This document shows, piece after piece, positions 6,941-60,963 of a DNA stretch of 64,000 nt. Both the position numbers and the translations under genes were made by a program. Positions within the stretch are counted from its first letter, which is position 1, and each line of letters begins with the position of its first letter. The DNA is taken from NCBI GenBank assembly GCA_002840355.1, contig PHAL01000003.1:7808-71807 (forward strand), read 5' to 3'. The DNA comes from Elusimicrobia bacterium HGW-Elusimicrobia-3 (GTDB lineage: Bacteria > Elusimicrobiota > Elusimicrobia > Elusimicrobiales > UBA9959). The notes below the pieces were generated by a model. It made no database searches, was not told the DNA's origin, and saw only the letters and a list, made by a program, of their open reading frames with translations.

Positions 6941-6974
6941 GCTCGAGCCCTGTCTCCGGTGAGACTTCAGGAGT

Positions 6975-12043: not shown

Positions 12044-13092
<1,049 letters not shown>

Positions 13093-13096
<4 letters not shown>

Positions 13097-14184
13097 AAGT
13101 ACTCATCACCGGCGTCTGCGGTTATGTCGGCAGCCGCATAGCGGCCCGCCTGGCGGAAGCCTCCCGGGGAATGGAGATCTTCGGCGTGGACAACCTCTCG
13201 CGCCGCGGCTCCGAAACCAACCTGCCCTTTCTCGAGCAGCGCGGCGTCCGCTTCTTCCACGGCGACGTGCGCCTGGCCGAAGACCTGGACGCCCTGCCGC
13301 AGGCCGACTGGGTGGTGGACTGCGCGGCCAACCCGTCCGTGATGGCGGGCCTGGCTCCCGGCACCGCCACGCCGCAGCAGCTGACCGCCATTAACCTGGG
13401 CGGCACGCTGAACCTGCTCGAATATTGCCGCCGGCGCGTCAGCGGCCTGGTGCTGCTGAGCACCAGCCGGGTCTACTCCGGCTCCGCGCTCAACGCCATC
13501 CCTTTCAAAAAGACCGCGACCCGCTTCACCCCGGCCGGGCGCGGCCTGCCGCCCGGCTTCACGGCCCGCGGCGTGGCCGAGAGCTTCTCCACCGCGGCGC
13601 CGCTGTCCCTCTACGGCGCCACCAAGCTGGCCTCCGAGGTGATGGCGCAAGAGTACGCCTGCGGCTTCGATTTCCCGCTGTGGATAAACCGCTCGGGCGT
13701 GATAGGCGGCCCGGGCCAGTTCGGCAAGGCCGACCAGGGCATCTTCTCCTACTGGGCCTGCGCCTATGCCCTGGGCCGGCGGCCGAAGTTCATCGGCTAC
13801 GGCGGCCGCGGCCTGCAGGTGCGCGACTGGGTCTCCGCCGAGGAAGTGGCGGAGCTGATACTGAAGCAGCTCAAATCCCCCTCCGCGAAAGCGCCCCGCA
13901 CCGTCAATATCGGCGGCGGGCAGGATAATTCCATGTCGCTGCGCGAGCTGGACGATTTCTGCCGGGATTTCTTCGGGGCCTCCGGGAAGACGGCGGGCGT
14001 GGCGGCCACGCGCCCCAACGACGTACCGTACTACGTCACCGACGCCGCGCTGGCGCGGCGGCACTGGGGCTGGAACCCCTCCGAGTCGAACGGGGCGCGC
14101 CTCGAGCGCACCTGCCGCTGGGCGCTGGAGAACCAAGAGCTCATAAAGCGCTGGTGGGACGGCGAAAAGACGGCTACAACATGA
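13093..14184 (+). CDS. NAD-dependent epimerase/dehydratase (extended SDR, CDP-paratose 2-epimerase-like)
   Basis: '[14 protein letters not shown]' and '[16 protein letters not shown]' (compare 'DNLSRKG' in RfbE-type epimerases). GTGA overlap with the upstream gene. Confidence 0.8.
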
Positions 14185-17101: not shown

Positions 17102-17102
17102 T

Positions 17103-36810: not shown

Positions 36811-36814
36811 AGGG

Positions 36815-45935: not shown

Positions 45936-46883
45936 TTAATGCCCCGCGTCCGCTTCAGCGCCGCCGCCCAGCCAGTACCGGGCGAGTTTCAGGGTCACCA
46001 CGCCGAAGATGATCATCAGCGCCACGCCGGCCAGCACCACGCGCCAGGCCCAGTAGGACACCTTGCGCGCCGGCAGGTCGGCCGCGTCGATGATCTCGTA
46101 GGTCCACCACCTGGAACCGGCCACGTTGGAAACGGAGACCAGGAAGGTACGGCCGCGGAAATTAACTTCGCTGGAGAAATTCTGAAGCTCGCGCGTGGAC
46201 GCCAGCGAGAGCAGCTTCAGCACTTCGGCGGGCGCCTTCAGGCCGGGCTTCATGATGGAGGCGCTCTCGGAGTCGGCTATCACCTGCCCCCCCATGTCCA
46301 CGAGGCCCAGGTTGCCGTAGGAGTTGCGCCCCATCATGCGCACTATCTCTCCGAGGTAGGCAAGGCTAAGCCGGCCTGCGAGGTAGTAGGCGGGGGCGCC
46401 GTTCTTGAGGAGCGGCTCGGCGAGCACCAGCGCCGGCGGCGTATACTCGCCGTACTCCACGGCCCCGGCGGGCGCCAGCGTACGCCGGGCCTCGGCCAGT
46501 GACGGGCTGCCTGAATAACTGAGCCTGGATTTAACGCTCTTATCGGCCGCGTAGCGGGCCAGCTCGCCGCCGGAGGGGCCCAGCAGGGACAGCTCGGAAT
46601 AGATGAAAGGGTTCTCCTTCACCAGGCCGGCAAGACGCGTCTTGAGCGCCGCCGCCCCGGCCGAGGCCCCCGTACCGGCCGCGCGGGAGAGGTTGTAGTT
46701 AAGGCTGAGCACGTCCGAAATTATCCCGGACCCGGTCAGCGTGCGGAGCTCCAGGTACCGCAGCATATCGTTGCGCCGCAGCTCGGCCTCGCCGCGTATG
46801 AAATGCATGCTGAGTATGAGGAACGGGATCAGGAAAAGCCCCGTTACGGTGAAGACGAACTTGTACTTGTTGTTTAGGTTCAT
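45936..46883 (-). CDS. Membrane protein with periplasmic Cache-like sensor domain and no output domain
   Basis: N-terminal TM, ~250-aa extracytoplasmic region with a Cache-like pattern ('...LGLVDMGGQVIADSE...'), and a C-terminal TM followed by only ~12 residues. Confidence 0.55.
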   Translation of the reverse strand: MNLNNKYKFVFTVTGLFLIPFLILSMHFIRGEAELRRNDMLRYLELRTLTGSGIISDVLSLNYNLSRAAGTGASAGAAALKTRLAGLVKENPFIYSELSLLGPSGGELARYAADKSVKSRLSYSGSPSLAEARRTLAPAGAVEYGEYTPPALVLAEPLLKNGAPAYYLAGRLSLAYLGEIVRMMGRNSYGNLGLVDMGGQVIADSESASIMKPGLKAPAEVLKLLSLASTRELQNFSSEVNFRGRTFLVSVSNVAGSRWWTYEIIDAADLPARKVSYWAWRVVLAGVALMIIFGVVTLKLARYWLGGGAEADAGH

Positions 46884-48079
46884 TTTGGGTAGTTCCGTGT
46901 TTTTTTCTCGTAGCGCTTGTTAAGTTCTTCGGTCCTGGCAGCCGCCCACCTGGCGGCAGCCCGCTCGCCCCAGTCCATGGTCTCCTGCAGCCCCAGGCCC
47001 GCCAGCGCGCAAAGCGCCCAGAGAGCCGGCAGGTAGTAGCGCAGCTCTATCCCGCCGGTGGAGGTCACTTGCTTTATGGCCGCCAGGGGCAGCACCGGCA
47101 GCAGCGCCGCCGCCGCGAAGATCACCAAGCGGTCTTTCCCGAGCGCGAAAGCCGCGTAGACGCCGAGGAATACGAGCACGATCAGGACCTTGTAATGCAT
47201 GATGCGCGGCAGCTCGTAAGAGAGGCTGCGCCCGAGCCCGCTGAAGGCGTCCTGCACCGCACCCGCCGGACCGGACCGCAGCAGGAAGGCAACGGGCCCC
47301 AGCGGCCCCTGCGGCCTGTCCGGCGCGGGTTCGTAGCCGAAGGCGTCGATATTAGCCCAGCGGCGCAGGCTGAGCTCCTGCGCGTAAAGGAAATTGCCGT
47401 ATTCCGCTTTCTGCCGCGCCGCGTAGGGCAGGACCAGCAGCAGGGCCAGCCCGAGCGCCAGCAGGGATTCCTTGAGCGGCAGCGCACCGCGCCTTACTGC
47501 CAGCGTAAGAATCACCACCGCCAGTATAGGCAGGGCCGCGTCGAGGCGGCTCAGGCAGGCCAGGCCGCCCCAGAGGCCAGCCAGCAGCGCGTGCCGCCTG
47601 CCGCCGGCGGGACTGTCGAAATAGTGCCAGAACAGCAGCAGAAAAAAAAGCGCGTAAAGCTGCGAGGAGCCCTGCGTGGCGTAATAGCCCAGAAAAGGAT
47701 TAGCCGCCAGGAACAACGCGCCGAAGACGGCCGCCGCCGGTCCGAAACGGCGCGAGAGCGTGAACAGGGTGGCGGCAAAGAGCAGCGCGAACAGCGCCAG
47801 CCCCTGCGCTCGCACGGCTTTTTCGGGGTCGGCCCCAGCGGCCATGGCCAATTTAAGGGCTGCCACCGGCACCGGTTCGGAGAGGCCGGAGTCATAGAAC
47901 CAGGAGGAGTTGGCGGCCATCAGCGAGCGGGAAGCCGCCTCGCGCAGCGGCTTGTCCCCGTAGGTCCGGGTGCTCGCGACGAAGTTAAGCAGCAGCGCCG
48001 CGCAGGCGAGCAGCAGCAGCGTGCCGCGCAGGAAGTCCTGCGAGCCGGTGATCCGAGCGAGCTTCTTAATATCTATCAT
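46880..48079 (-). CDS. Polytopic membrane protein, GT-C/ArnT-like (PMT_2-type) candidate
   Basis: 399 aa with about 10 hydrophobic helices. ATGA overlap with the downstream Cache-like gene. Confidence 0.5.
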   Translation of the reverse strand: MIDIKKLARITGSQDFLRGTLLLLACAALLLNFVASTRTYGDKPLREAASRSLMAANSSWFYDSGLSEPVPVAALKLAMAAGADPEKAVRAQGLALFALLFAATLFTLSRRFGPAAAVFGALFLAANPFLGYYATQGSSQLYALFFLLLFWHYFDSPAGGRRHALLAGLWGGLACLSRLDAALPILAVVILTLAVRRGALPLKESLLALGLALLLVLPYAARQKAEYGNFLYAQELSLRRWANIDAFGYEPAPDRPQGPLGPVAFLLRSGPAGAVQDAFSGLGRSLSYELPRIMHYKVLIVLVFLGVYAAFALGKDRLVIFAAAALLPVLPLAAIKQVTSTGGIELRYYLPALWALCALAGLGLQETMDWGERAAARWAAARTEELNKRYEKKTRNYPK

Positions 48080-49421: not shown

Positions 49422-49455
49422 AAGAAAAAGGCCGCGGACAGCCGCGGCCTTTTTC
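49422..49455. terminator. Bidirectional hairpin terminator
   Basis: aagaaaaa-ggccgcgg(acag)ccgcggcc-tttttc, between the convergent methyltransferase and fibre genes. Confidence 0.75.
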
Positions 49456-49472: not shown

Positions 49473-52400
49473 CTAGATAGCGCCGCCTGCCATGGTCGCC
49501 AGGCTGCCGGCGTTCACAGTGCCCGTGGAGACCACCACTTTCTGGCTGCAATCCGCGCAGTAGTAGATCTCCCCTTCCATTTCAGGCGTATACCCCAGGA
49601 GCGTGGCCCTATCCTTGCTCGGCAGGGCCAGCTTGCCCTGTACCCCCACCGCGCCCTCAAAGATATTTATAGAGTCGGCCCCCCGGGAAAGCAGGTTAAA
49701 GTTATCCCCGGAGCCCTGGGTGCTGTGGTCTTCTATCAGCAGCGCTGTGTTGTTCACAATGGCGCCGCCGGTAACGTCCGGGGGCAGTATCACCACGCCG
49801 TAATGCTCGTTTATAGTGCCGGCCGACTGGTAATTCTGCACGAAGACACCGGAGACGTTCTCCACTGTGCCGGCCCCCTCTACCATCGCCCCGGAACGCA
49901 CGCCGATCACGTTGGGGAAGTTGAAGGCGCCGGCATTGCTGCCGTGAAAATCTCCGCCGACCACCGTCTGGTCGGCGTTGAGGTGAGAATCAGGTTCAAC
50001 GGTCGCCATCACGGCTATGCCGGTGTTTTCCGCGCCTATCCCGGTGGCGGAGAAAGTGTTCTCTATCAGCAGCACCCGCTCCGAAGAGGGGCCAAGGGCG
50101 GCGTTGCCCATGTATATACCGGAGTTTATCCCCAGCGTGCCCACGTTGGAGATATTGTAGCCGCCCATGTCCAGGTCGGCGCCCCCCCCTCCCCCGGAAC
50201 CGCAGTCCGCGTCCTTGACGCCCAGCGTACCTTCCGCCGTAGCGTAAACGCAGCGGTTACCGATCCCGGCCAGCGCCGTGTTCAGCAGGCTGCCCTCGAT
50301 ATACAGCGTAGACGCCGGCACTATGGAGGAAACGTTGACGATGTTATACGTGTTCATGTCGAAGTGGGCTATGGCCGGGTTGGCCATGCCCACGCCGGCG
50401 GGCACGTTGAACAGACCGGAGCCGTCACCGTAGAACCTGGTGGCGTACACGCCGCCCGCGCCTGTCAGGCGAATCACTGGCGAGACTCCGGTGGAAACCA
50501 TCACCATATCCCCGGCGTAGCCGGCCGCCGAGGAGATGTGCAGGCTGGCGGCCGGAAATGTCTCGCCTATCACCAGCGGGCCGTTGGAGAACATGGCCCC
50601 GCCCGCGGCGAAGATGTCGCCTCCCACGAACAGCGAGGTGGAGAAGGCGATGCCGGGCTCCGAGGGTGAACCCACAATGGTGGAGACATTGATCATCCAG
50701 TTGCCGGCCAGGTCCAGGGCCTGCGTGGCCGTGTGATCGCCCAGGCCCCCGGTGCCGCTGACGCCGGTCAGCGCCGAGCCGTCGCCGTAATACTTGGCGG
50801 CCGAGGCTATGCCCACCACGTAAATATTACTGCTCACGTAGACGCCGCCGTTGAAGGCCGGCGCGGAAGAAGAAACCTCCACTTCAGGGGCCAGGGCCAG
50901 GCGCGGGGAGGTCAGGCCGTCCGCGGCCGCTACTGACAGGCTGCCGGCGAAAGCGTTGTCGGCGGCGTCCAGCAGGGGCACGTTGGCCGACAGCCGCGCG
51001 TCGGGCAGGGCGCCGGAGGTGAGCGCCGCGGCGCTGAGGTTGCGCAGGGCCGAGCCGTCGGCGTGCAGCAACCCGGAGGCCGTCATCGTGGCCTGGACCA
51101 GGCCGGCGTTGTTGCGCCAGAATTGTATGTAGCCGCCCTGCTCGCCCAGCACGTCCAGGCGCGCCGCCGGGGCGCCGGTGCCTACGCCGGCGTTGCCGGC
51201 GCTGTCCACGAAGAAACCCTCCGGATCCCCGTCGCCAGAGATCCAGTTGGAGCCGGTGATCAGGTCCTGCGTGAGCGTGTGGTCGCCCAGGTCGTCGTCG
51301 CCGCCTATGTTGCTGAGGGCGGAGCCGTCGCCGTAGTACTTGGCTCCGGCCGGCAGGTAGACATGCGTGGAAACGTAGACGCCGCCTTGGAAAGCGGCGG
51401 TCGCCGAGGAAAGGTCTACGCCGGGGGCCAGCGCCAGCCGCGGGGCGCCCACGCCCTGCGCGCCCGTCACCGTGACCGAGGAGGCGTTCAGGAGCTGGTT
51501 GCCGGCCAGGTTCAGCGCCTGTGAGGCGGTATGCCCGCCCAGGCCGTCGCCGGAAATATTGCGCAATCCGGCGCCGTCGGCGTAGATCACGCCGCCGGCG
51601 GAGACCGAAGCCATGATAACGCCGAACTGGTTGCGCCAGATCTGAGAGTAGGGCGCCGCGGGGACGGTCAGCACGTCCAGCCTGGCCTCGGGAATCTCGG
51701 TGCCGGCGCCTATATTGCCGTCGTTGCGCACCTTGAAGATAGTGAAACCCGTAAAATTCTCGGCGAGGAAGGCGTTCTCGGTATCGTCGTCAGTATTGGC
51801 CCGCACCAGCAGTTTACTGGTCCCGGCATTAGACTGGCCTATGGCCACGCTGGACGCGGCTTCCACGGTGTATACGCTGTTGCCGGCCACTCCCCACAGG
51901 GCGGAAGTGTCTACGAAATAAGACCCGTTGAGCGTGACCCAGTTCGAGCCGTTATACCCTTCGAAAGAGGCACCGTTGTAGCGGATAGAGCCCGGGACAT
52001 TGAGCGCGCTGTCGCCCACCCTGACCGCGCCGTTGACGTCGAGCCGCTGCAGCGGGAGGGCCGTGCCGATACCGACATTGCCGTCGGCCACCACCAGGCC
52101 GGAGGAAACCAGGACGCCTGGCAGGGTGGCGTGCTGTATGGAAAAAGTCGCGCTGGAAACGAAAGTGTTGGCCTGCGCCAGCCCGGCGTAGCCGGCCGCC
52201 GCGTGGTCGCCCCAGGCGACGGCCCCGTTCCAGGCGGCGCGCTCGCCTGCCAGGATGGCGTAAGCCGGGTGCGCGATAAAGACCGGGTCGGCCTCGGCTA
52301 TATTGGTCAGGCCGGAGCCGTCGGCGTACAGCACGCCCGCGGCGGTCATCGTGGCCACGGCCGCGCCGGCCGCGCTGCGCCAGATCTGGGAATTGCCGGC

Positions 52401-53747
52401 CACGGCGCCGCGCACGTCCAGGCGCGCCTCCGGCGCGTTGGTGCTCACGCCAACATTGCCGCCGGCGTCCACGAAAAGGCCTTCACTGCCGCCGTCGCCG
52501 GAATACCAGAACGCGCCGGCCGCGAGATTCTGCGCCAGCGTATGGTTGCCGAGGCCGTCGCCCAGGGCGCCCGCGGGCAGCCCGCGCAGGCCGGAGGCCG
52601 CCGCGTACAATACGCCGGTGGCGCTCATGGAAGCCTGCACCACCCCGCCGTCGTCGCGCCAGATCTGGGCGTAACCGCCGGCGTCCCCGCGCACGTCCAG
52701 CCGCGCGCCGGGGGCGGCCTGGCCCACGCCCACGTTGCCCGCGGCGTCCACGGCCAGGCCCTCGCCGTCGCCGTCGCCGGACACCCAGTTCGCGCCCAGC
52801 ACCAGGTTCTGCGTCAGCGTGTGGTCGCCCAGATCGTCGGAGCCGCTGACCCCGGTCAGACCGGAGCCGTCGCCGTAATACTTGGCGCCGGCGGCCAGGT
52901 AGACATGGCTGGAAACATAGAGCCCGCCGTAATGGGCGGCGGCAGAGGATGAAAGCGAGACCGCCGCGTTCAGGCCCACCGAGGGCGCGGAGACTATGCG
53001 CCGGCCGGCCATATTGAGGTCCTGCGTGGCTGTGTGCGAGCCCAGACCGTCGCCGGAGATATTGCGCAGGCCGGCCGCGTCGGCGTAGAGCGTGCCGCCC
53101 GCGGTCATGGAGGCCACGATGACCCCGCCGGAATTCCGCCAGAACTGAGAGTAGGAGTCCGCCGCGGCCGCCTGCACGTCCAGCCGGGTCTGCGGGCCCG
53201 CCAGGCCCAGGCCGGCGTAGCCGGTGCCGGTCAGCACGGCGTGCTGGCCCGAAGCGGCCCAGCCGGGCGCGGTGCGCTGCACGGTGTTGTCGGTATAAAC
53301 GACGCCCCTGCTGCCCGCCGCCCCGGAGAGCTTCAGGTCGCCGTTATTGACGGTGAAGGTGCCGGTGGAGGCTTCGGCCGTGACCGAGTGCAGGGAGTAG
53401 ACCGAGGAATAGAGAGGCTCCGGCTGCAGCCAGCCGCCGTCGAGGCTCATCATGACGTAAGGGGTTATATCTTTCCAGGGTATGGCCGCGAAAGTCTCCT
53501 CGTCAGGAGTGCCGAGCGGGTAGCGGAACAGGCCTGTGGAAACCACAACATCCGTGGAACCGGAATTCCAGTACTCCGCGGCGCCGGAGGCGTCCGTTAT
53601 CTTGAACTCCATCGCTACCGTGCCGTTGAACAGCCGGCCGTCCTTGCGCAGCGTGCCCTGGTAGCTTATCAGGCCCGGCGAGGCGGCGTAAGCCCCCCCG
53701 GCCAACAGCCCGGCCAGCGCGGCCGCTAAAATGGATATTTTTTTCAC
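49473..53747 (-). CDS. 1,424-aa secreted repeat fibre / adhesin-like protein (tail-fibre-type 'GNVGIG..AP.ARLDV' and 'YYGDGS.LT' repeats)
   Basis: GTG start with GAGGTGA 4 nt upstream. Signal peptide 'ILAAALAGLLAGGAYA'. Many Gly/Ala-rich repeats and a beta-helix-like C-terminal third. Confidence 0.8.
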   Translation of the reverse strand: MKKISILAAALAGLLAGGAYAASPGLISYQGTLRKDGRLFNGTVAMEFKITDASGAAEYWNSGSTDVVVSTGLFRYPLGTPDEETFAAIPWKDITPYVMMSLDGGWLQPEPLYSSVYSLHSVTAEASTGTFTVNNGDLKLSGAAGSRGVVYTDNTVQRTAPGWAASGQHAVLTGTGYAGLGLAGPQTRLDVQAAAADSYSQFWRNSGGVIVASMTAGGTLYADAAGLRNISGDGLGSHTATQDLNMAGRRIVSAPSVGLNAAVSLSSSAAAHYGGLYVSSHVYLAAGAKYYGDGSGLTGVSGSDDLGDHTLTQNLVLGANWVSGDGDGEGLAVDAAGNVGVGQAAPGARLDVRGDAGGYAQIWRDDGGVVQASMSATGVLYAAASGLRGLPAGALGDGLGNHTLAQNLAAGAFWYSGDGGSEGLFVDAGGNVGVSTNAPEARLDVRGAVAGNSQIWRSAAGAAVATMTAAGVLYADGSGLTNIAEADPVFIAHPAYAILAGERAAWNGAVAWGDHAAAGYAGLAQANTFVSSATFSIQHATLPGVLVSSGLVVADGNVGIGTALPLQRLDVNGAVRVGDSALNVPGSIRYNGASFEGYNGSNWVTLNGSYFVDTSALWGVAGNSVYTVEAASSVAIGQSNAGTSKLLVRANTDDDTENAFLAENFTGFTIFKVRNDGNIGAGTEIPEARLDVLTVPAAPYSQIWRNQFGVIMASVSAGGVIYADGAGLRNISGDGLGGHTASQALNLAGNQLLNASSVTVTGAQGVGAPRLALAPGVDLSSATAAFQGGVYVSTHVYLPAGAKYYGDGSALSNIGGDDDLGDHTLTQDLITGSNWISGDGDPEGFFVDSAGNAGVGTGAPAARLDVLGEQGGYIQFWRNNAGLVQATMTASGLLHADGSALRNLSAAALTSGALPDARLSANVPLLDAADNAFAGSLSVAAADGLTSPRLALAPEVEVSSSAPAFNGGVYVSSNIYVVGIASAAKYYGDGSALTGVSGTGGLGDHTATQALDLAGNWMINVSTIVGSPSEPGIAFSTSLFVGGDIFAAGGAMFSNGPLVIGETFPAASLHISSAAGYAGDMVMVSTGVSPVIRLTGAGGVYATRFYGDGSGLFNVPAGVGMANPAIAHFDMNTYNIVNVSSIVPASTLYIEGSLLNTALAGIGNRCVYATAEGTLGVKDADCGSGGGGGADLDMGGYNISNVGTLGINSGIYMGNAALGPSSERVLLIENTFSATGIGAENTGIAVMATVEPDSHLNADQTVVGGDFHGSNAGAFNFPNVIGVRSGAMVEGAGTVENVSGVFVQNYQSAGTINEHYGVVILPPDVTGGAIVNNTALLIEDHSTQGSGDNFNLLSRGADSINIFEGAVGVQGKLALPSKDRATLLGYTPEMEGEIYYCADCSQKVVVSTGTVNAGSLATMAGGAI
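51033..51716 (-). repeat. Internal protein-level duplication unit B of the fibre gene (aa ~678-905)
   Basis: See unit A. The DNA copies are diverged (by eye roughly three quarters identical), so this is not a recent duplication or an assembly artefact. Confidence 0.75.
52563..53219 (-). repeat. Internal protein-level duplication unit A of the fibre gene (aa ~177-395)
   Basis: Collinear with aa ~678-905: 'RLDV...YSQ(F/I)WRN..GVI.AS..AGG.(L/I)YAD.AGLRNISGDGLG.HTA.Q.LN.AG...AKYYGDGS.L....G.DDLGDHTLTQ.L..G.NW.SGDGD.EG..VD.AGN.GVG..AP.ARLDV'. Confidence 0.75.
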
Positions 53748-53751
53748 AATC

Positions 53752-54573
53752 TCACCTCTTGCCGGGCGCCGCCGCCCGGGTCCTGGCCAGCTCGAGGTAG
53801 TACAGCGCCTCGTCGTTATCGTCGTCGGAATCCAGCTCTTTTTCCAGCAGCTCTATCGCCCCGGCCCACTGCCTTCTACCGTAAAGCGACAGGGCCTCCC
53901 GCAGGTTCGCGTGCCGCAGCTTCAGGCCCGCCTCCAGGCCGCGCAGTTTCTGGGCCTTCTTCAGCTGGGCCTCGGTCTCGCCGGCCGAGCGCACCCCGCC
54001 GTAGAGAGACTGGCGCTCGGACACCCTGTTGAACTGCAGCGCGGCCAACATCCTGCTGTCCGCCTCGCCGCGGCCCTCCGCGAGGTACGGGTAATGTTTC
54101 TTCACCGTTTTAAAAAAGATGCCCCTGATCCTGGCGTCGGCGGCGGCCAGCGCTTCCGCGTTGTCGGAGTAAACGGGAAAAATCACGAGCAGCCGCTCGT
54201 AGGCAGCCACGGCTTCCGCGGCGGTGTCCGGGTCGGCGGCCAGTGAGCAAGCCAGGGCGAACTCTTCCTCCCAGGCACCCATCCGGCGCTCGCGGGCGGC
54301 GTTCATCTCGTCGCGGCGCTCGCGGGCCCGCCGCGCCTCGTCGAGCAGCGAATCCCTTTCCCTGGCCGCTACGCCGCGCTCCGAAGCGGCCGCCCGGCCC
54401 GCCGCAGTTTTCAGGCGCGAGCGCGCCGCGGCGTCGGAGGAATCGGCCAGCACGGCGTCCATGAGCTTTATCACCTCGGCCCTGCGCTGGTCGGCGGCGG
54501 CGGTCTGCGCTCGCAGAGGGCAGGCGCAGGCCAGCAGCGCCGCCGCGGCGGCGGCAAGGCGCGAGGGGCGCAT
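53752..54573 (-). CDS. Hypothetical secreted all-helical protein (Arg/Ala/Glu-rich, TPR-like C-terminus)
   Basis: Signal peptide 'AALLACACPLRAQ'. The start shares 1 nt with the upstream stop (TAATG), and the gene ends 4 nt before the fibre gene. Confidence 0.6.
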   Translation of the reverse strand: MRPSRLAAAAAALLACACPLRAQTAAADQRRAEVIKLMDAVLADSSDAAARSRLKTAAGRAAASERGVAARERDSLLDEARRARERRDEMNAARERRMGAWEEEFALACSLAADPDTAAEAVAAYERLLVIFPVYSDNAEALAAADARIRGIFFKTVKKHYPYLAEGRGEADSRMLAALQFNRVSERQSLYGGVRSAGETEAQLKKAQKLRGLEAGLKLRHANLREALSLYGRRQWAGAIELLEKELDSDDDNDEALYYLELARTRAAAPGKR

Positions 54574-55715
54574 TACCCGGGGTCCTCCAGCTTTAAGCGG
54601 GCGCGCCGCATCAGTTCCAGCGCGTCCTTATAGCCGGGGTCGGCGGTCAGCGCCTCATTGAGCAGCAGCACCGCCTCGTAATAACGTTTTTCCTTCAGCA
54701 GGCCGCGGGCCTGCTCCGTCTTGCGCACGGCCTCCTCCTGCTCCACGCTGAGATGGCGGGTGACCGCCACCGGCCTGTCGAACTTGTAGGAGAGGGCGAA
54801 GCGGTGGGCCGGCCCGAACTTGCCATAGGAGGAAAGAGAGTAGTCGAACTGCAGCAGCTTCATCACCAGGCCGCCGCCCAGCCGCAGACCGCCGCCGAGG
54901 TCCTCGCCGGAAACGTAGCCGGCCCGCACCGAGACCGCCCGCCAGACCTGGTACTCGGCCCCGGCGCAGAGCACGGCGCCGGCGTCTTTCTGCTGCCTGA
55001 CGTCGGCCGAAAAAGTAATGGGGTCTCCCGCAGCCAGCATGATATACGAGGCCCCGGCCCTGAAGACGGAGGGCGCCGGGCCGGTCTCGGAGTCGAATTT
55101 AAAGCCCTGTCCCACGGATTGGGCCGAGACGCCCAGCGCCAGCGTGCCGGCGGGCCGCCGCTTTATCCAGAGCAGCCCGGCGTCGGCCAGGGCCGCCGCG
55201 GCGGAAACCCCGTCCAGTTCCTCGCGAGCGTACTTGAGCGTGATTCCGGCGAAAAGGCCGGACAGCCTGTCCTGCCAGGGCCCGGCCAGGCGCGCCGCGT
55301 AGCTCAGGCCGGCGGCCAGGCTTCCCGCCTCCACGCCGCCGGCGGCCGCCCCGGAATTGTCATACCCGTCGATGCCGGGGACGCTAAGCGCCAGCACGGA
55401 GACCGCGGCCGCGCCGTAGCGCAGAGGCTGCGCGTAAGCGGCCTGCTGCGAATTGATCCCCTCCAGCCAGGAGTTATAGGTGAAAGCCGCTTCCTTGTAG
55501 GCCGTGCGGCCCAGCGCCGCCGGGTTGATCGCCAGCGCGCCCAGCAGGTCGCCGTAGCCGCCCGCGCCGGACTCGCCCATGCCTACGGCCCTCGGGCTCT
55601 GCACGATGCGCAGGAATTCGCCGCCGGAGGTGCCGGCTCCCGCCGCGGCGCTGCCGGCCGCGCAGAGCAGCGCGCAGCAGGCGGAGAAGAGTTTGAGTGC
55701 CAGATTATTTTTCAT
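54573..55715 (-). CDS. PorV/PorQ-like outer-membrane beta-barrel with C-terminal TPR-like helical tail
   Basis: Signal peptide. N-terminal 'GGEFLRIVQSPRAVGMGESGAGG...LAINPAALG' resembles the PorV/PorQ (also UPF0164) signature. The barrel ends '...FALSYKF', then ~70 aa of helical tail ('KEKRYYEAVLLLNEALTADPGYKDAL'). Confidence 0.55.
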   Translation of the reverse strand: MKNNLALKLFSACCALLCAAGSAAAGAGTSGGEFLRIVQSPRAVGMGESGAGGYGDLLGALAINPAALGRTAYKEAAFTYNSWLEGINSQQAAYAQPLRYGAAAVSVLALSVPGIDGYDNSGAAAGGVEAGSLAAGLSYAARLAGPWQDRLSGLFAGITLKYAREELDGVSAAAALADAGLLWIKRRPAGTLALGVSAQSVGQGFKFDSETGPAPSVFRAGASYIMLAAGDPITFSADVRQQKDAGAVLCAGAEYQVWRAVSVRAGYVSGEDLGGGLRLGGGLVMKLLQFDYSLSSYGKFGPAHRFALSYKFDRPVAVTRHLSVEQEEAVRKTEQARGLLKEKRYYEAVLLLNEALTADPGYKDALELMRRARLKLEDPG

Positions 55716-55719
55716 CCGA

Positions 55720-57048
55720 TTATTTTATTACCACCAGTTTGCCCGTCTTCCTGCTGGAGCCGGAAGTGACTTCCCACAGGTAGACGCCGCTGGCCACGGT
55801 CTGGCCGGAGGAATTTTTCAGGTCCCATTTCATCGACGGGGGCGCCGCTTGCAGCTCGCGCACCAGCGCCCCGGTGACGGTATAGATGCGGATCTTGCCG
55901 TAGGCCGGCAGGTTGGTGAAGGTTATCAGGTCGGCCCAGCTGCCGTACCTGGCCGCGTCGCCGGCGCCCGGCCTGAAAGGGACAGGGTAGGCATAGACCG
56001 GGCTCAGGTCCGCGTCCGGCACGGCCAGCAGGGCATAGTCCGAAAAATGAGAGACGGTCTGCGACACGGTCCTGGCGGCGCTGTCCACAAGAGCGCCGGC
56101 CTGGCGGACCCAGAGCCCTTTAGCCTCGTCGAGGCGCCAGACCGCCAGCGCGGAAGTCTTCAGCCGGGCGAGGGAACCGTCCACCAGCCCGTCGCCGTCG
56201 GCGTCGGCATAGGGCAGCGTCACCACGCAGGCGGAATTGGGCTGTATAGTGTTGCCGGCCGCGTCGTAGGGCGTCACGCTGAGCGTGCGCAAGAACTCGG
56301 GCGAGCCCGGCAGCGCGGCCAGCCTGGAGTTGGCTTCCCTGATCTCGGCGCGGGCGGCGTCCGTGGAGAGGGCCACGAAGAAGTCTTGCGGGTAGGCGTT
56401 GGCCGGGATGCGCACGCGCGCGGCGCGGTCGGAGAAAGCCGCGGCGGTATTGTCGGCCTGGTGGTCCATGATGACCGAGAAATACACGGTCGAGGCCGGC
56501 GCGAGCGGGGAACCGCTGACGTCGGCGATGGAAGAGGAAAAGCTGACGGCGAAGACCCCGCCCTTGGGCCAGGAGTCCTGCGGCGAGACCACCAGCTTGC
56601 TGCCCGAGTAGCCCACCGTGACCGTCCAGGTGGAATTCACGGCGTTGCCGGCGTTGTCGTAAACCTGCGTCACCGTAATTCCGTGGTCGGAGATCTCCCC
56701 GGCTATCTCGCCGCCGAAAACCAGGTCCAGGGTTTCCCCCGGCGTCATGCCCCACAGCCCGCCGTCGGCCAGCACCGAGGAGGTGGACGCGAGGGCGGCC
56801 AGCCCGGGGCTGACCACTTCGGCCGGCACCAGCGAGAGGTAGCCGGACCAGACTGAGGACGGCGCGGAAACCAGCAGACCGCCGCTGGCGCAATTATCAC
56901 CCACGGTGTAGGACAGGTCATAGGCCCCGGTAGAGGCGCTGACTACGGCCAGCGGAGCGTCGGAGGAGCGGATCTTCTCCCAGGCGCAGCTGGCGCCGGC
57001 CGGGAACAGGGGCAGGAGGAGCAATAAGAGGAGCGGGCTTTTTATCAT
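55720..57048 (-). CDS. Secreted Ig-like (Big_5/SbsA-type) protein with C-terminal T9SS type-A sorting / FlgD-Ig-like domain
   Basis: Signal peptide. C-terminal ~90 aa 'VYAYPVPFRPG...ITFTNLPAYGKIRIYTVTGALVREL...WDLKNSSGQTVASGVYLWEVTS...GKLVVIK' fits the Por_Secre_tail/FlgD_ig pattern. Confidence 0.65.
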   Translation of the reverse strand: MIKSPLLLLLLLPLFPAGASCAWEKIRSSDAPLAVVSASTGAYDLSYTVGDNCASGGLLVSAPSSVWSGYLSLVPAEVVSPGLAALASTSSVLADGGLWGMTPGETLDLVFGGEIAGEISDHGITVTQVYDNAGNAVNSTWTVTVGYSGSKLVVSPQDSWPKGGVFAVSFSSSIADVSGSPLAPASTVYFSVIMDHQADNTAAAFSDRAARVRIPANAYPQDFFVALSTDAARAEIREANSRLAALPGSPEFLRTLSVTPYDAAGNTIQPNSACVVTLPYADADGDGLVDGSLARLKTSALAVWRLDEAKGLWVRQAGALVDSAARTVSQTVSHFSDYALLAVPDADLSPVYAYPVPFRPGAGDAARYGSWADLITFTNLPAYGKIRIYTVTGALVRELQAAPPSMKWDLKNSSGQTVASGVYLWEVTSGSSRKTGKLVVIK

Positions 57049-57146
57049 ATCCGGTCAACCGGCCGAGAAGGCGCGATAATATACCCGTTTATTATATAAA
57101 ACGGGCGACGGAGTATAGGGATAAATGTCAACGCGGGGTTAACCTG

Positions 57147-58094
57147 CTACTTCTCCAGCCAGGCCGCGGCGCGCAAGCCTTTTAACTTCCCGGCGCCGGT
57201 CAGGCCTTCCACGTGGGCGTTATAGCGCGTCTGCACCGGCTTGTCCTTGCCCAAAGCGCCGGAAGCGGTGGCGTTCTGGACGAAACCCGCGTTCACCGGG
57301 AAAGCCGTGACCAGGTAGGCGTGCGCGGAGGCGGTATCGCTCACAGAATAGACGAGCAGGTGAGTGTTGCCGCCCGCGGGCGCCAGGAACGGGGCGAAGT
57401 CGGTGCGCAGCGTCACCCGGCGGCCGCCCGGGAGCGCGACCTCCTCGGTGAGCCGGGCGCGCTTCACGGCGGAGAAGGCGTATTTTTTCACGGCTCCGGA
57501 GCAGCTGCCCCCCGCTTTGCGCAGCGCGGCCCAGGCGGCGGGATCGTCCTTGAGGGCGATGCCGCCGGCGAGGCAGGTGATATTGGCCAGCAGGGTACCC
57601 TCCGAAGGCGAGGGCCCGGCGGAACCGGCCGCCAGGCCCAGGCCTTTCGCTATGTCCGGCTTCACCCAGCGCGCTCGCTTGAAGCCGAACTTGGTGGGCA
57701 GCAGGCTGAACAGGTAGCCGTAAGTATGCTCCAGCCCGGCGTGCGCTATCCGGCCGCGGGGCTGCGCGGCGCCCAGCCGCGAGGCGATGAAGGAAAGTAT
57801 CTCCGGGCGCACTATCTCGCCCTTGGCAAGCTCGTCGTAATTTATGCTCTCGCCCCAGAGCGCGAGCAGCCCGGGGGTAGCGCGGTCCTTGTCCATCTGG
57901 GCCAGCAGGCCCGGCAGCGACGCCTCGAAAACCTGTTCCAGGCCCGCGCCGGCGTCCGCGGCGGCGGCGAGCTCCCGGGCCGCCCCGGCCCAGGGGCAGT
58001 CCTCGGCCGCTTCGCCCGCCGCCGGGCAGGCGGCCGATAGCGGGACCAGCGGCAGGGTCAGCAGCGCGGCGCCGAGCAGGAGGCTCCTGATCAT
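57147..58094 (-). CDS. Hypothetical secreted protein
   Basis: 315 aa with signal peptide 'LLLGAALLTLPLVPLSA'. No family recognised. ATGA overlap with the upstream 103-aa gene. Confidence 0.55.
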   Translation of the reverse strand: MIRSLLLGAALLTLPLVPLSAACPAAGEAAEDCPWAGAARELAAAADAGAGLEQVFEASLPGLLAQMDKDRATPGLLALWGESINYDELAKGEIVRPEILSFIASRLGAAQPRGRIAHAGLEHTYGYLFSLLPTKFGFKRARWVKPDIAKGLGLAAGSAGPSPSEGTLLANITCLAGGIALKDDPAAWAALRKAGGSCSGAVKKYAFSAVKRARLTEEVALPGGRRVTLRTDFAPFLAPAGGNTHLLVYSVSDTASAHAYLVTAFPVNAGFVQNATASGALGKDKPVQTRYNAHVEGLTGAGKLKGLRAAAWLEK

Positions 58095-58402
58095 GCCAGC
58101 CTCCCGAAATCCGACGGGCTGACGGTGTAGTAGCGGGTGCCGCAGGGGTAACCGGGATACGGCCCGCAGCTCTCGTCCTGGCCCGCCGGGGCGGCCGTGC
58201 TCTTGTTGACGGAATTGGCGATGTCCTGCAGCGTCTCCGGCTTGGCCGGATTATCCGCCTGCGCGGGCTTCTGCGCCTTGAAGCAGGCGGCTAGCCCGGC
58301 CAGGCCGAAAGCCAGCAGCCCGAGTATGCCGAACCGCGCGACGCGGTTCACCTCGGCCCTGGTCAGGCCGGTCTTCTCTCCGAGTTCATAAAGTTTTTTC
58401 AT
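58091..58402 (-). CDS. Hypothetical single-pass membrane protein
   Basis: 103 aa. Short cytoplasmic N-terminus, TM 'FGILGLLAFGLAGLAAC', periplasmic tail ending in the Cys/Pro/Tyr-rich 'CGPYPGYPCGTRYY'. Confidence 0.5.
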   Translation of the reverse strand: MKKLYELGEKTGLTRAEVNRVARFGILGLLAFGLAGLAACFKAQKPAQADNPAKPETLQDIANSVNKSTAAPAGQDESCGPYPGYPCGTRYYTVSPSDFGRLA

Positions 58403-58448
58403 AACCCCTCCGCCGACTAGCTAAATTGATTCTATTATTTTTCCGGCC

Positions 58449-58480
58449 CGAAACAAAGCCGGCGCCCGAGGGGGCGCCGG
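58449..58480 (-). terminator. Hairpin terminator after the 56-aa lipoprotein gene
   Basis: Stem ccggcgccc (58459-58467) pairs with gggcgccgg (58472-58480). On the minus strand it is followed by ctttgttt. Confidence 0.55.
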
Positions 58481-58499
58481 CCGTTGTGCGGAAACCCGT

Positions 58500-58670
58500 T
58501 TACTTGCCGGCCTTCGGGGCTTCGGTCGCGGCGGCGGGAGCCGCGGCCTCTACGGCGGTGCCGGACACCTGGTCGGCGGCGACGGGGGCCACGACAGCCT
58601 CCTGCTTCTTGCAGGCTGCGGCCAGCATCAGCGCCACGAGGGGCAGTATGAACATTATGGTCTTCTTCAT
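58500..58670 (-). CDS. Small putative lipoprotein (56 aa), absent from the supplied ORF track
   Basis: Own translation: MKKTIMFILPLVALMLAAACKKQEAVVAPVAADQVSGTAVEAAAPAAATEAPKAGK. Lipobox-like 'LAAAC'. GGAGAAACAACA precedes the ATG, and the gene has its own terminator. Confidence 0.55.
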   Translation of the reverse strand: MKKTIMFILPLVALMLAAACKKQEAVVAPVAADQVSGTAVEAAAPAAATEAPKAGK

Positions 58671-58732
58671 TGTTGTTTCTCCTGTTGATGTACCGGGAAC
58701 TTAAGCGTTCCGCAGTTGTAATTCTTCAAAGC

Positions 58733-58761
58733 AAAAAAAAAGGCGGACCCGTGGTCCGCCC
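58733..58761 (-). terminator. Rho-independent terminator of the rSAM/methyltransferase operon
   Basis: Minus strand: ggcggacc(acg)ggtccgcc followed by ttttttttt, 23 nt after the stop at 58784. Confidence 0.75.
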
Positions 58762-58783
58762 CTGTATAGCAAAGCCTATAATA

Positions 58784-59767
58784 TTATCCCCCGCCGGAGC
58801 AAATCCCGCCCTCGCGGCGCCGGGCCAGCCTAAAAACCCAGGCGGCAGCCGCCTCGCGGGTAAACACCGCCGGCGCGCGGTCAGCCGGGGGCGGCCCGTG
58901 CGGCGCCGCGGCCCCGGCCAGGGCGGCCTTAAGCAGCTGCCGGCCCAGTTCAAGCGCCGAACGCGCCGCCCTGTCGGCGTCCTCCGCGCTGCCGTAATTA
59001 GCGAGAAATTCCGCCGCCAGGCGTCCCTGCAGCCCCCACTCCGCCAGTCGCGCGCAGGCCGCCGCCTCCGGCGAGGGACGCGGCTCGTTCTCTTCCGCCA
59101 GCGTAAAATATTCCAGCGCGGCGGGCGCGCTGACCAGGGCTTGCTCCAGTTCCGAGCCCGGGTCGCCCGCGCCGCCGGCCAGGCGCCTGACAGCCAGCTC
59201 CAGGCCGGCGCTCTCCTCCTCCCGCCCGAAAGCCGCCAGGCCCCTGTCCAGCAGGCGGCGCCGCAGCGCCGCGTTAAGGGCGGCCCGCTCGCCTTCCTTT
59301 TTCAACGCCTCGAAACGCAGGGCGGGTCGGTGCGGCTGGAACAGGAATTCAGTCACGGCGCGCGTCTCGAAACCGGCTTCGGCCAGGAGTTCGGCCAGCA
59401 GTTCTTTGGGGAAACAATAGGCGTGGCCCATGCCGGCGGTCTCGGGGCCGTAAACCCAGCCCAGCGCCGCCTCCCGCGCGGCGGCGTCTCCGGCGAGAAA
59501 GACGGAGAAAGTCTTCTCTATGTCCGGCGTCTCCAGCGTCAGCGTGCCGCCCGGCTTCAGGACGCGCCAGCATTCGGAGAGGAAATATTTGGCTTTAAAA
59601 AAACCGAGGTGTTCCACCAGCTGCAGGGCCTTAACCTCTTCCGCCGACGCGCTCTCCAGGCGCAGGTCATGCGCCTCCATCAGCGTGTCGGCCGCCGAGT
59701 CCGGGTTATTGTCGACGTTAAGCCAGCCTTCCAGGCGGTTATAGCCGCAGCCGATATTCAGTTTCAT
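58784..59767 (-). CDS. Class I SAM-dependent methyltransferase with Ala-rich helical C-terminal domain
   Basis: ATG 59767 ('MKLNIGCGYNRLEGWLNVD', motif I; 'VLKPGGTLTLETP'). ATGA overlap with the rSAM gene. The ORF-track start at 59908 is judged an extension. Confidence 0.75.
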   Translation of the reverse strand: MKLNIGCGYNRLEGWLNVDNNPDSAADTLMEAHDLRLESASAEEVKALQLVEHLGFFKAKYFLSECWRVLKPGGTLTLETPDIEKTFSVFLAGDAAAREAALGWVYGPETAGMGHAYCFPKELLAELLAEAGFETRAVTEFLFQPHRPALRFEALKKEGERAALNAALRRRLLDRGLAAFGREEESAGLELAVRRLAGGAGDPGSELEQALVSAPAALEYFTLAEENEPRPSPEAAACARLAEWGLQGRLAAEFLANYGSAEDADRAARSALELGRQLLKAALAGAAAPHGPPPADRAPAVFTREAAAAWVFRLARRREGGICSGGG

Positions 59768-60963
59768 TTGGCCTGTTCTCCGCCCCGCCCGCCGGAGAAA
59801 AAGCGGCCCAGCCGCCGGAATACTTCCGGCCCCGCCAGCCCGTTCAGCGCGCCGCGCCAGCCGGCCGGCTTCAGCTCCGGCAGGTATTCCTCGATGCTGC
59901 GGAAACAATAGGGGTCGTTATGCAGGCGGCCGGTCTTCATCAGCGACATCTCGCTGCAGCCGCCGCGGCAGGTCTCCAGCTCGGGACAGCCGGCGCAGTT
60001 GGGGCCGGCGTCCTCCTTTTTGAAACCCCGGGAGTAGGCAAAGCCCCCGGGCCTGTTCCAGATTTCGCGGAAACTGGACACGCGGACATTCCCCTCCACG
60101 TAGTTCTCGTCGTTCATGGCCAGACAGCCCATTACGCCGCCGTCGCTCCTGATGCCGGCCACCGAGATGCCGGCCTGGCAGCCCTCCCACTTCTCATAAA
60201 GCGCCACATTTTTCAGCAGGCCGGAGTGGTAGCCCAGGTCGTGCGCGCCTATCACCGGCAGCTCCTCCGGCGTGAATTCGCGGCGGCAAGCCTCCACAAA
60301 AAGACCGACGGCGTAGAACTCTTCCTTGTCCAGCAGGAATTCCCGGCTGAAGCGGCCGCCTTCGCCGCCGGCCGTCTGCACCTGCCAGGCGATGCCGCGC
60401 CCCTTGAGCAGGCCGCGCAGCGCCGGCAGTTCTTTGATATTCAGTTTGTGGACGGTAGTGATCACGCTGACAGGCAGCCCTTCGGACAGGCAGCGCGCTA
60501 TGAAGCCGGAGGCTTTTTCGAAAGCCCCCCGCATGCCCCGGATGCGGTCGTGCAAGGCCGGGTCGGCCGCGTCCAGGCTTACCGCCACGGCCCGTGGCCG
60601 CAGCTCCCGGAGCCCGGCGAAGATCTCCTCGGAATGAATAGTGCCGTTGGTGATGACGGAGAGCTCCATGCCGAGCTCACGCACCCGGCTGGCGATGGCG
60701 AAGAAATCGGGCCGCAGCAGCGGCTCTCCGCCCATCAGCGCCACGCCCCGGCAGCCGGCGCTCTTGAGGTCGTCGCAAAGCGCCAGCGCCTCGGCCGGGC
60801 TCAGCTCGGCGGCGCGCCGGCCGCCGGCCGTGGAGCCGCAATGCAGGCAGCCCAAATTGCAGGCCAGCGTCAGTTCCCAGACCGCGCAGGCCGGGACATA
60901 GTTTGAGTTCAATTCCCCTCCGCTCACAAAGCCTATGATACAACAGCCCGGCCCCCCAGGCAA
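59764..60963 (-). CDS. Radical SAM protein with C-terminal SPASM domain
   Basis: 'LTLACNLGCLHCGS' (CxxxCxxC) and a C-terminal Cys cluster 'CLAMNDE...CAGCPELETCRGGCSEMS...DPYCF'. Start uncertain: TTG 60963 or GTG 60927. Confidence 0.85.
   Translation of the reverse strand: MPGGPGCCIIGFVSGGELNSNYVPACAVWELTLACNLGCLHCGSTAGGRRAAELSPAEALALCDDLKSAGCRGVALMGGEPLLRPDFFAIASRVRELGMELSVITNGTIHSEEIFAGLRELRPRAVAVSLDAADPALHDRIRGMRGAFEKASGFIARCLSEGLPVSVITTVHKLNIKELPALRGLLKGRGIAWQVQTAGGEGGRFSREFLLDKEEFYAVGLFVEACRREFTPEELPVIGAHDLGYHSGLLKNVALYEKWEGCQAGISVAGIRSDGGVMGCLAMNDENYVEGNVRVSSFREIWNRPGGFAYSRGFKKEDAGPNCAGCPELETCRGGCSEMSLMKTGRLHNDPYCFRSIEEYLPELKPAGWRGALNGLAGPEVFRRLGRFFSGGRGGEQAK

Follow-up and report, generated by a model that had tools for sequence, protein, structure and literature searches.

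The 64,000-nucleotide (nt) stretch of contig PHAL01000003.1 (positions 7,808 to 71,807; assembly GCA_002840355.1, Elusimicrobia bacterium HGW-Elusimicrobia-3) analysed here, which we call the window, contains a compact operon of four minus-strand genes. In order of transcription these encode an immunoglobulin (Ig)-like protein of 442 amino acids (aa) with a C-terminal domain (CTD) of the kind that routes proteins to a type IX secretion system (T9SS), a 380-aa outer-membrane barrel of the PorV/PorQ family, a 273-aa helical protein with a tetratricopeptide repeat (TPR) motif, and a repeat-rich, fibre-like protein of 1,424 aa. T9SS-type parts are here organised, outside the Fibrobacteres-Chlorobi-Bacteroidetes (FCB) group, as a compact operon dedicated to a giant, variable-tipped fibre. 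We propose that the operon is a dedicated carrier and anchor station for a surface fibre, built from T9SS-type parts and specific to Elusimicrobiota, and we put the probability of this reading at roughly one half.

Operon structure

A previous description of this DNA, made from its letters without database searches (hereafter the sequence-only reading), reported four tightly coupled minus-strand genes between a hairpin and a terminator. The coordinates of the four open reading frames (ORFs) were reproduced exactly from the ORF list, and the resulting features are as follows.

55720-57048, minus: gene 1, 442-aa CTD protein, in which a signal peptide and an N-terminal segment (residues ~22-80) are followed by two beta-sandwich domains and, at the C-terminus, by the type-A CTD (families and AlphaFold2 (AF2) model)
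54573-55715, minus: gene 2, 380-aa PorV/PorQ-family outer-membrane barrel (NF033709, AF2, Foldseek)
53752-54573, minus: gene 3, 273-aa helical protein with a signal peptide and a C-terminal TPR motif (ORF, orthologue profile)
49473-53747, minus: gene 4, 1,424-aa repeat-rich fibre-like protein with a GTG start, a signal peptide and no CTD (repeats, scans with hidden Markov models (HMMs))
49422-49455, minus: intrinsic terminator of the operon (perfect 14-bp GC stem, -30.3 kcal/mol, then a T-run)
57049-57146, minus: upstream intergenic region with the likely promoter (AT-rich TATATAAT box within the 57084-57105 hairpin)

Third-position GC is 0.85-0.87 in all four genes, a value typical for genuine genes of this 60-70% GC window. 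Read directly from the letters, the junctions are as tight as previously described: genes 1 and 2 are separated by 4 nt (TAA-TCGG-ATG), genes 2 and 3 share a 1-nt TAATG overlap (GGGTAATGCG), and genes 3 and 4 are again 4 nt apart (TGA-GATT-GTG). N-terminal signal peptides were read by eye from all four translations.

The terminator was recovered with its stem, T-run and folding energy. The hairpin at 57084-57105 is also present (8-bp stem, -11 kcal/mol, with TATAAT as its loop), but its supposed role as a border of the array was not sustained. A TATAAT-like AT-rich box is kept approximately 45-60 nt 5' of the gene 1 start in eight relatives, in which the stem is not kept; because it is the box that is conserved, the element is likely to be the -10 region of the operon promoter rather than a boundary hairpin. 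The TATATAAT box stands out against the GC-rich genome, and the nearest TTGACA lies 29 nt 5' of it, too distant for a canonical -35 element.

Conservation and duplication of the operon

The barrel alignment was used to query one genome per GTDB species, and 35 loci were returned. All of these, together with every named relative, come from metagenome-assembled genomes (MAGs) of Elusimicrobiota, three of the scan records being titled only 'bacterium'; the closest homologues, at 93-95% identity, are in GWB2_63_16 and an Elusimicrobiales MAG. According to family HMMs, 34 of the 35 loci have the barrel, 33 have the CTD protein, 30 the TPR protein and 28 the fibre, most of the misses being contig ends, and the order CTD protein, barrel, TPR protein, fibre is found in essentially every locus with enough contig. 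Whether relatives retain this order was a question raised by the sequence-only reading; they do so in about 30 species-level genomes, all belonging to Elusimicrobiota. Genes flanking the operon are common to only 0-17 of the 35 loci, and the arrangement is far beyond chance. In the distant relatives L012, L047 and L053 the families stay together in permuted order. The fibre at first seemed to be missing from L015, but this was traced to the joint effect of a run of Ns in the scaffold and the ORF filter, and was discarded as an artefact.

Two MAGs each carry two complete, diverged modules. Between these paralogous modules the CTD protein, the barrel and the N-terminal domain of the fibre are 41-52% identical and the TPR protein 23-32%, and one type of module has a short TPR protein (~270 aa) where the other has a long one (420-500 aa). 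On these comparisons the operon has been duplicated as a unit and retained whole, which argues for one-to-one specificity among its partners.

The CTD protein, the barrel and the TPR protein

Domains of the first two gene products are located as follows.

56464-56802, minus: Ig-like (Big_5-type) beta-sandwich of gene 1, residues ~83-195 (PF13205, E 4e-4, below cut-off; AF2)
55723-56013, minus: type-A CTD of gene 1, residues 346-442, ending in ...KTGKLVVIK (TIGR04183, PorZ model, phmmer, Foldseek)
54780-55496, minus: 14-stranded beta-barrel of gene 2, residues 74-312 (DSSP on the AF2 model)
54588-54746, minus: C-terminal three-helix TPR-like tail of gene 2, residues 324-376 (AF2 helices 324-341, 345-358 and 363-376)

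The CTD that had been suspected on the 442-aa protein is supported by a family model, by alignment and by structure comparison. TIGR04183 matches it at 26.1 bits against a cut-off of 23, placing it among type-A sorting domains; the PorZ model NF052228 matches its last 97 residues (E 1e-12), and phmmer aligns the CTD to residues 669-749 of the PorZ structure 5m11_A (E 2e-4). As the Pfam models remain below threshold, we base its type-A membership on the NCBIfam model and the alignment to the PorZ CTD. The AF2 model, obtained with 51 orthologues (predicted local distance difference test, pLDDT, 84.6), has three beta-sandwich domains, the last of which is the CTD; strands 83-192 and 352-440 both exceed pLDDT 90, the latter forming an Ig-like beta-sandwich at the extreme C-terminus. 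Residues 22-80 are modelled with low confidence, yet conserved in sequence. Foldseek places PorZ first and PorU fifth among the matches to this model, with low whole-chain template modelling (TM) scores that are consistent with a match confined to the CTD. K437 of the CTD is invariant across the 51 orthologues. The family consists of Elusimicrobia proteins of 430-480 aa to which NCBI gives the name 'T9SS type A sorting domain-containing protein', and this uniformity marks it as one group of orthologues of conserved length, not a varied set of cargos. Neither Pfam and NCBIfam nor Foldseek identified a catalytic domain in the 442-aa protein. That genes 1 and 3 might encode lipoproteins was considered and rejected, since neither has a conserved lipobox cysteine.

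The 380-aa protein is matched over residues 30-312 by the PorV_fam subfamily model NF033709 (105 bits against a cut-off of 90), and its fold is closest to that of Flavobacterium johnsoniae PorV, in agreement with the PorV/PorQ-type barrel originally proposed. The AF2 model (pLDDT 81) consists of an N-terminal helical segment, a barrel of 14 strands according to DSSP, which is the strand count of PorV with which the sequence-only reading had suggested comparing it, and a C-terminal three-helix tail. The top Foldseek matches are the PorV chains 8gl6_F (E 2e-15) and 6h3i_F (E 1.5e-13), at TM 0.64-0.70 and 18-19% sequence identity, followed by FadL at a TM of about 0.49. The PorP/SprF model TIGR03519 reaches only E 0.13 (11.6 bits against a cut-off of 90.55), which places the protein outside that family; nor, on its equivalog scores (given below), is it to be filed as PorV or PorQ proper. 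The tail has weak TPR matches in Pfam and a nearly invariant RYYEA motif, which we used as a family-specific search pattern, and is predicted from the model to lie in the periplasm.

The window copy of the 273-aa protein has no family match in Pfam or NCBIfam. The orthologues score 27.4 bits with TPR_2, whose cut-off is 27, and a profile of the family matches only generic and designed TPR proteins in the PDB; no particular periplasmic protein of the T9SS (SprE/PorW, PorD or Skp, for example) was among the matches.

The giant fibre-like protein

Three regions of gene 4 are distinguished.

53313-53681, minus: conserved fibre N-domain, mature residues ~23-145 (identity profile over 29 loci)
50298-53222, minus: internal repeat region, residues ~176-1150 (fragment-versus-whole BLASTP)
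49476-49760, minus: class-A tip, residues 1330-1424, with the motif GE.YYC.DCS.K.VVSTGT (fibre comparison)

The protein had been described as a repeat-rich fibre without a CTD, and both features were found again. Residues 176-485 are duplicated in residues 677-912, with additional sub-repeats carrying GN[VIA]G[VIA]G...P..RLDV. A BLAST search of the whole protein against itself returned the identity match only; the repeats surfaced in searches of fragments against the whole, with up to 63% identity and E-values down to 1e-48. No CTD was found on the fibre with Pfam, with NCBIfam models of any CTD type or with the family CTD HMM, and phmmer retrieved no homologue from the PDB.

Conservation is concentrated at the N-terminus. 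The first ~120 mature residues average 61-83% identity to the residue in the window, position by position, over 29 loci, as against 20-35% in the shaft, and this N-domain is the best-conserved part of the module. It is N-terminal in every one of 748 representative proteins, many of them shorter, and the few with source names are from Elusimicrobia. We propose from this pattern that the conserved N-terminus is the cell-proximal end of the fibre, facing the machinery. The tips differ. The class-A tip is present in about half of the distinct complete fibres (11, the window included), six others (L006, L016, L017, L023, L026 and L032) end in a tip resembling formylglycine-generating enzyme (FGE)-sulfatase and C-type lectins (...GFRC.M.LR), and the remaining fibres are different again. 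In L006 (17000-18277), the one copy scanned for it, PF03781 matches this second tip above its cut-off (26.5 bits against 23.3). The C-type-lectin-like/FGE fold is a classic target of diversity-generating retroelements.

Two further proteins touch on the fibre family. At L008:12793-13893 a fibre ORF starts with a 23S_rRNA_IVP/bAvd-like four-helix domain (105 bits). At L049:820-1962 is encoded an Elusimicrobia protein of 380 aa in which the fibre N-domain is joined to Peptidase_S74; no module genes lie downstream of it, and its upstream side ends at the contig end. Peptidase_S74 is the intramolecular chaperone of trimeric tail fibres. Since the N-domain is common to this protein and to the fibre of the module, several fibres per genome may share one docking domain.

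The term 'fibre' for gene 4 is itself inferred from the repeats, the motifs and the paralogue with a tail-fibre chaperone domain. The closer comparison made by the sequence-only reading, which called the protein tail-fibre-like, is weakly supported by the pattern of N-terminus and tips and by the S74 paralogue, and found no backing in homology to PDB structures or annotated phage families. It does raise the question of whether the operon is a domesticated phage or tailocin cassette, with gene 4 as its receptor-binding fibre and the neighbouring genes serving in assembly or as chaperones. A conserved fibre N-terminus with swappable tips and the S74 paralogue would be expected of such a cassette, and the fibre has a weak match to a Chlorovirus glycoprotein repeat and one PHROG match, of unknown function and over 55 residues. 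Against this, genes 1-3 have no PHROG match, and neither homology to known tail-fibre families nor phage structural, integrase or lysis genes were found in the window or among the flanking genes. All four products have Sec signal peptides, gene 2 encodes an outer-membrane barrel, and the module occupies a stable chromosomal site beside rlmD in 17 of the 35 loci. A phage origin of this kind is thus very improbable, and we return to the operon as a cellular carrier and anchor station.

A distant SprA homologue and the T9SS context

One gene outside the operon completes the set of T9SS-type parts in the window.

38059-43389, plus: SprA-like gene, 1,776 aa (TIGR04189; family profile versus PDB)

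It ends 6.1 kb from the fibre stop, in accordance with the SprA-like gene noted 6 kb away in the sequence-only reading. TIGR04189 matches the protein with E 8e-38, although at 129 bits it falls below the cut-off of 200, and Pfam SprA_N has no match in it. A phmmer search of the PDB with the single sequence gave nothing useful; a profile of the family was needed to recover SprA, and it retrieved only the F. johnsoniae protein (6h3i_A, 6h3j_A; E 4e-20), over ~130 residues in the N-terminal part. On these profile matches the 1,776-aa gene is a real but distant SprA homologue, and its product is presumed to be the outer-membrane translocon for the module. The family, of ~1,780 aa, is 49-95% identical across Elusimicrobia, and every named member is annotated 'hypothetical'. 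Among Elusimicrobia it is better conserved than the fibre module; in the window the gene is divergent from lptG/lptF (35722-37927).

The sequence-only reading had regarded the operon as a candidate self-contained module for export and anchoring, and self-contained export is the part of its interpretation that we do not retain. Since a 14-strand barrel of the FadL/PorV type is not a translocon for a folded fibre, export most likely depends on the SprA-like gene outside the operon. Its alternative suggestion, a lineage-specific T9SS-related system, agrees with conservation across Elusimicrobiota, a phylum outside the FCB group and hence outside the taxonomic range of the canonical T9SS. We found no relevant literature on T9SS, PorV or SprA in Elusimicrobia.

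It could be argued that the operon is nothing more than an ordinary T9SS cargo locus. A divergent but full T9SS would then be encoded elsewhere in the genome, with the barrel serving as its general PorV shuttle, alone or among several, and the 442-aa protein as a cargo whose CTD is cleaved, while the fibre and TPR genes would be mere co-transcribed neighbours. Matches to CTD, PorV_fam and SprA models are what a normal T9SS organism would give, NCBI already assigns standard T9SS names to the orthologues, and other proteins in the databases have a related CTD on different passenger domains (P0181, P0182). Against this, T9SS genes have been reported to be absent from non-FCB phyla (PMC11285876). 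The sequence-only reading recognised no porK/L/M/N, porU/Z, sprE or sprT in 64 kb, and among the window ORFs scanned with NCBIfam, some of them only at strict E-values, we likewise found none of these, nor PorT, PorW or any T9SS gene beyond the SprA homologue; matches to the PorZ and PorU models in the window are limited to the CTD. The family CTD HMM detected no CTD protein besides the family itself, either in the window or in Elusimicrobia flanking sequence that totals ~0.9 Mb and is partly redundant. Moreover, the CTD protein is a single conserved family of fixed length, and the co-travel of four families through about 30 species, with permuted orders and duplication of the whole module, is unexpected for a general shuttle and a random cargo. 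We consider an ordinary cargo locus unlikely.

Several results weigh against a carrier and anchor station. The 380-aa protein fails both equivalog models, scoring 34 bits against 250 on PorV (NF033710) and 73.5 against 220 on PorQ (NF033711), and a second PorV-family paralogue (described below) outscores it on the PorV models. In the 442-aa protein, whose C-terminus the sequence-only reading had proposed to check with HMMs, TIGR04183 is passed whereas PF18962 (17.9 against 27) and the FlgD_ig model PF13860 (22.5 against 27) are not. No signal that would take the fibre across the outer membrane is recognisable in it, and in L046 the first three genes stand without a fibre next to them. For signal peptides and topology the basis was inspection by eye and the AF2 models.

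Some of these results would also suit an anchor independent of any T9SS, consisting of a FadL-superfamily barrel that acts as an anchor or small-molecule channel and a supposed CTD that is a generic Ig-like or FlgD-type module, with export by another route, for example one resembling a type II secretion system (T2SS). T2SS-like machinery is abundant in Elusimicrobia, and T2SS and pilin genes lie near the related module in L012. The Pfam CTD and FlgD_ig scores are not only below threshold but similar to each other, the PorV and PorQ equivalog scores are low, and the similarity to SprA is partial and below the curated cut-off. The barrel is, however, considerably closer in structure to PorV than to FadL (TM 0.64-0.70 as against about 0.49), the CTD aligns by sequence specifically to that of PorZ, and the occurrence of barrel, CTD and SprA homologue in one phylum is hard to call coincidence. 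We therefore judge such an anchor to be improbable, and prefer a carrier and anchor station built from T9SS-type parts.

A proposed mechanism

The analysis yields folds, family memberships and co-inheritance directly; from these we infer all physical interactions, the topology and the fibre export route in the following model. Having signal peptides, the four products would enter the periplasm. The PorV/PorQ-family barrel is predicted to insert in the outer membrane with its TPR-like tail facing the periplasm. The 442-aa protein would cross the outer membrane by virtue of its type-A CTD, most plausibly through the SprA-like translocon, by analogy with F. johnsoniae, in which CTDs bind the loops of their cognate carrier barrels inside SprA and type-B adhesins stay on the carrier (PMC10994853). 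Once exported, it may remain bound through the CTD to the loops of the co-encoded barrel, much as PorU and PorZ, T9SS substrates that retain their CTDs, are held at the surface of Porphyromonas gingivalis by PorV and PorQ respectively (PMC5562754, PMC10947112). By the same analogy the barrel would act as a dedicated carrier and anchor rather than as a general shuttle. The TPR/helical protein, to judge from its co-conservation with the barrel, might engage the periplasmic tail as a scaffold, a chaperone or a link to an energy source, and together the two would make up the station's periplasmic side; the SprF carrier couples to its machinery by a periplasmic C-terminal tail (PMC12635249).

The giant fibre would be the passenger. 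From the pattern of conservation, its N-terminal ~120-residue domain would be recognised by and docked to the anchor, the best candidate sites in the CTD protein being its Ig domains or the segment at its N-terminus, which is conserved but unstructured, while the repeat shaft and interchangeable tips would point outwards and bind the target. As it has no CTD of its own, the simplest route is that the fibre rides with the CTD protein through the SprA-like pore. The idea of the sequence-only reading that the CTD protein acts as anchor or adaptor for the fibre fits this scheme well, since it is the N-domain of the fibre, rather than its tip, that is conserved.

Comparison with characterized systems

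The nearest parallels are the PorQ-PorZ and PorV-PorU pairs of P. gingivalis, in which a 14-strand barrel of the PorV/PorQ family is likewise combined with a surface protein whose CTD is retained as an anchor, as we propose here (PMC5562754, PMC10947112). PorQ-PorZ is the more similar, in that the CTD from the operon most resembles that of PorZ and the best equivalog model for the barrel is PorQ. The 442-aa Ig-like partner has, however, neither the beta-propellers of PorZ nor the gingipain-like sortase domain of PorU, and the operon barrel is predicted to have an added periplasmic TPR-like tail. In contrast to either pair, the two genes here share an operon with those for the TPR protein and the giant fibre, and the host belongs to Elusimicrobiota rather than Bacteroidota, with no sign of the chemistry by which proteins are attached to anionic lipopolysaccharide (A-LPS).

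In SprB-SprF of F. johnsoniae, a gliding adhesin with a type-B CTD and its carrier, as in the operon, a giant repetitive surface filament is encoded beside a dedicated outer-membrane carrier barrel, which retains SprB at the surface and would do the same for the operon fibre (PMC12635249, PMC10994853, PMC9143113). Both barrels have a C-terminal tail, which is periplasmic and functional in SprF, where it has a twin-cysteine motif, and TPR-like and predicted to be periplasmic in the operon barrel. The differences are that the operon fibre has neither a type-B nor any other CTD, that its barrel belongs to the PorV/PorQ rather than the PorP/SprF family, and that a separate, CTD-bearing adaptor is interposed in the operon.

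PorV as found in the SprA translocon (6H3I, 8GL6) provides the best structural matches to the barrel model, and a SprA homologue is present in the same genome; the latter is only 1,776 aa in length compared with 2,403 aa for SprA, and scores below the curated cut-off. PorV is moreover a general shuttle of many cargos, whereas the operon barrel co-segregates with a single partner.

Phage tail fibres resemble the operon fibre in their conserved N-terminal attachment end, variable repeat shaft and exchangeable tips, and an S74-bearing paralogue is a further likeness; the operon fibre differs in being cellular, exported by Sec (the signal peptide being recognised by eye) and chromosomally stable, with no phage context. 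Finally, two-partner secretion (TpsA/TpsB) also couples a giant passenger with a conserved N-terminal recognition domain to an adjacent outer-membrane barrel. The operon barrel is a 14-strand, FadL/PorV-like protein with no POTRA domains, unlike the 16-strand Omp85 barrel TpsB. Neither a TPS domain on the fibre nor Omp85 or POTRA on the barrel was matched in Pfam or NCBIfam, which sets the operon apart from two-partner secretion.

Neighbouring genes

Two upstream genes, of 315 and 103 aa, were considered as members of the module and rejected, as they are common to only 12-14 of the 35 loci. In the stretch 58091-60963 are a radical SAM/SPASM maturase-like gene, whose best match, to a peptide maturase, falls short of the cut-off, together with a methyltransferase-like gene and some small ORFs (103 aa in the window, 56 aa in the exact-copy locus L001). 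In 13-14 of the 35 loci these genes are likewise kept upstream of the module, and they may constitute a cluster for a ribosomally synthesised and post-translationally modified peptide (RiPP). Beyond them, in 61080-62681 of the window and in L001:1-4615, a PfaD-family enoyl reductase (616 bits) adjoins a large multidomain gene for a polyketide or polyunsaturated fatty acid synthase; by these matches the region is a polyunsaturated fatty acid or polyketide lipid cluster.

On the other side of the operon, a PMT_2-family glycosyltransferase gene (46880-48079) is retained in the neighbourhood of the module by 12 of the 35 loci, and sugar-nucleotide, glycosyltransferase and B12-radical-SAM genes occupy 2068-6940 and 12044-19443. 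The glycosyltransferase and sugar-nucleotide genes could serve to glycosylate the fibre or the lipopolysaccharide. In distant relatives, two-component systems (histidine kinases, OmpR-type and single-domain response regulators) stand beside or inside the module (L008:5717-8459; L011:9158-9916 and 13247-15075; L012:5068-7739; L013:810-9870), although none is adjacent to it in the window. Such neighbours hint at regulated expression of the fibre.

A paralogous barrel and a motor gene cluster

The second PorV-family paralogue is a 569-aa protein with several TPRs (PorV_fam, 162 bits), encoded in the MAG GWD2_63_28, where a fibre module is present as well. It belongs to a cluster with the order PorV-TPR barrel, histidine kinase, MotA, a FliG-like protein with middle and C domains only, an uncharacterised protein of ~500-549 aa, and MotB/OmpA. 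The cluster lies outside the window (L050:10001-17434, and also L051 and L053-L058) and is found at 55-58% identity in every metagenomic locus long enough. Homologues of motAB and fliG, of unexplained role, have been described in non-flagellated, free-living Elusimicrobiota (preprint 10.1101/2022.07.08.499144). In L053 a set of minus-strand genes divergent to the motor cluster (2803-9829) encodes a short CTD protein of 384 aa and three fibre-like proteins, of 349 aa, 369 aa with the fibre N-domain and 1,231 aa with an FGE-like tip; this layout physically links the protein families of the module to the motor cluster. Several of the small fibre-like proteins end in a common ...NSG.K.AAWLRNK motif.

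The gene content of the PorV-TPR/MotAB/FliG-like cluster makes it a candidate for the energy source of a system resembling the T9SS or gliding machinery, and suggests that the fibre stations belong to a larger apparatus of this kind with a different motor. Free-living Elusimicrobiota might accordingly possess an undescribed relative of the T9SS and gliding machineries, in which a shortened SprA-like translocon and PorV-family barrels with periplasmic TPR tails export and hold a CTD adaptor on which interchangeable, tail-fibre-like adhesins are docked by their common N-domain, the drive being provided by the orphan MotAB/FliG-like proteins instead of GldLM/PorLM-PorKN, and the operon described here being one station for adhesion, gliding-like movement or both. 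This wider scheme is speculative and we rate its chances as low.

Significance

The T9SS, and the logic of its carriers, have been regarded as an innovation of the Bacteroidota and the other phyla of the FCB group. The operon places three hallmark parts in a separate phylum, all of them conserved across Elusimicrobiota: a PorV-type carrier barrel, a type-A CTD and a giant SprA-like barrel. In our proposal they serve a different product there, a station of one carrier and one adaptor for giant fibres whose tips can be exchanged. If the carrier and anchor reading is true, these would provide an outgroup for the evolution of T9SS carriers and of CTD recognition, as well as a simple and compact genetic model of the anchoring of a CTD to its carrier. 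The clustering of a PorV-TPR barrel with MotAB/FliG-like genes offers a concrete, testable role for the motor genes of flagellum-less Elusimicrobiota. If the carrier and anchor reading holds, the fibre itself would be a candidate main adhesin, or structure for contact with hosts, in a phylum on which there are almost no cell-biological data.

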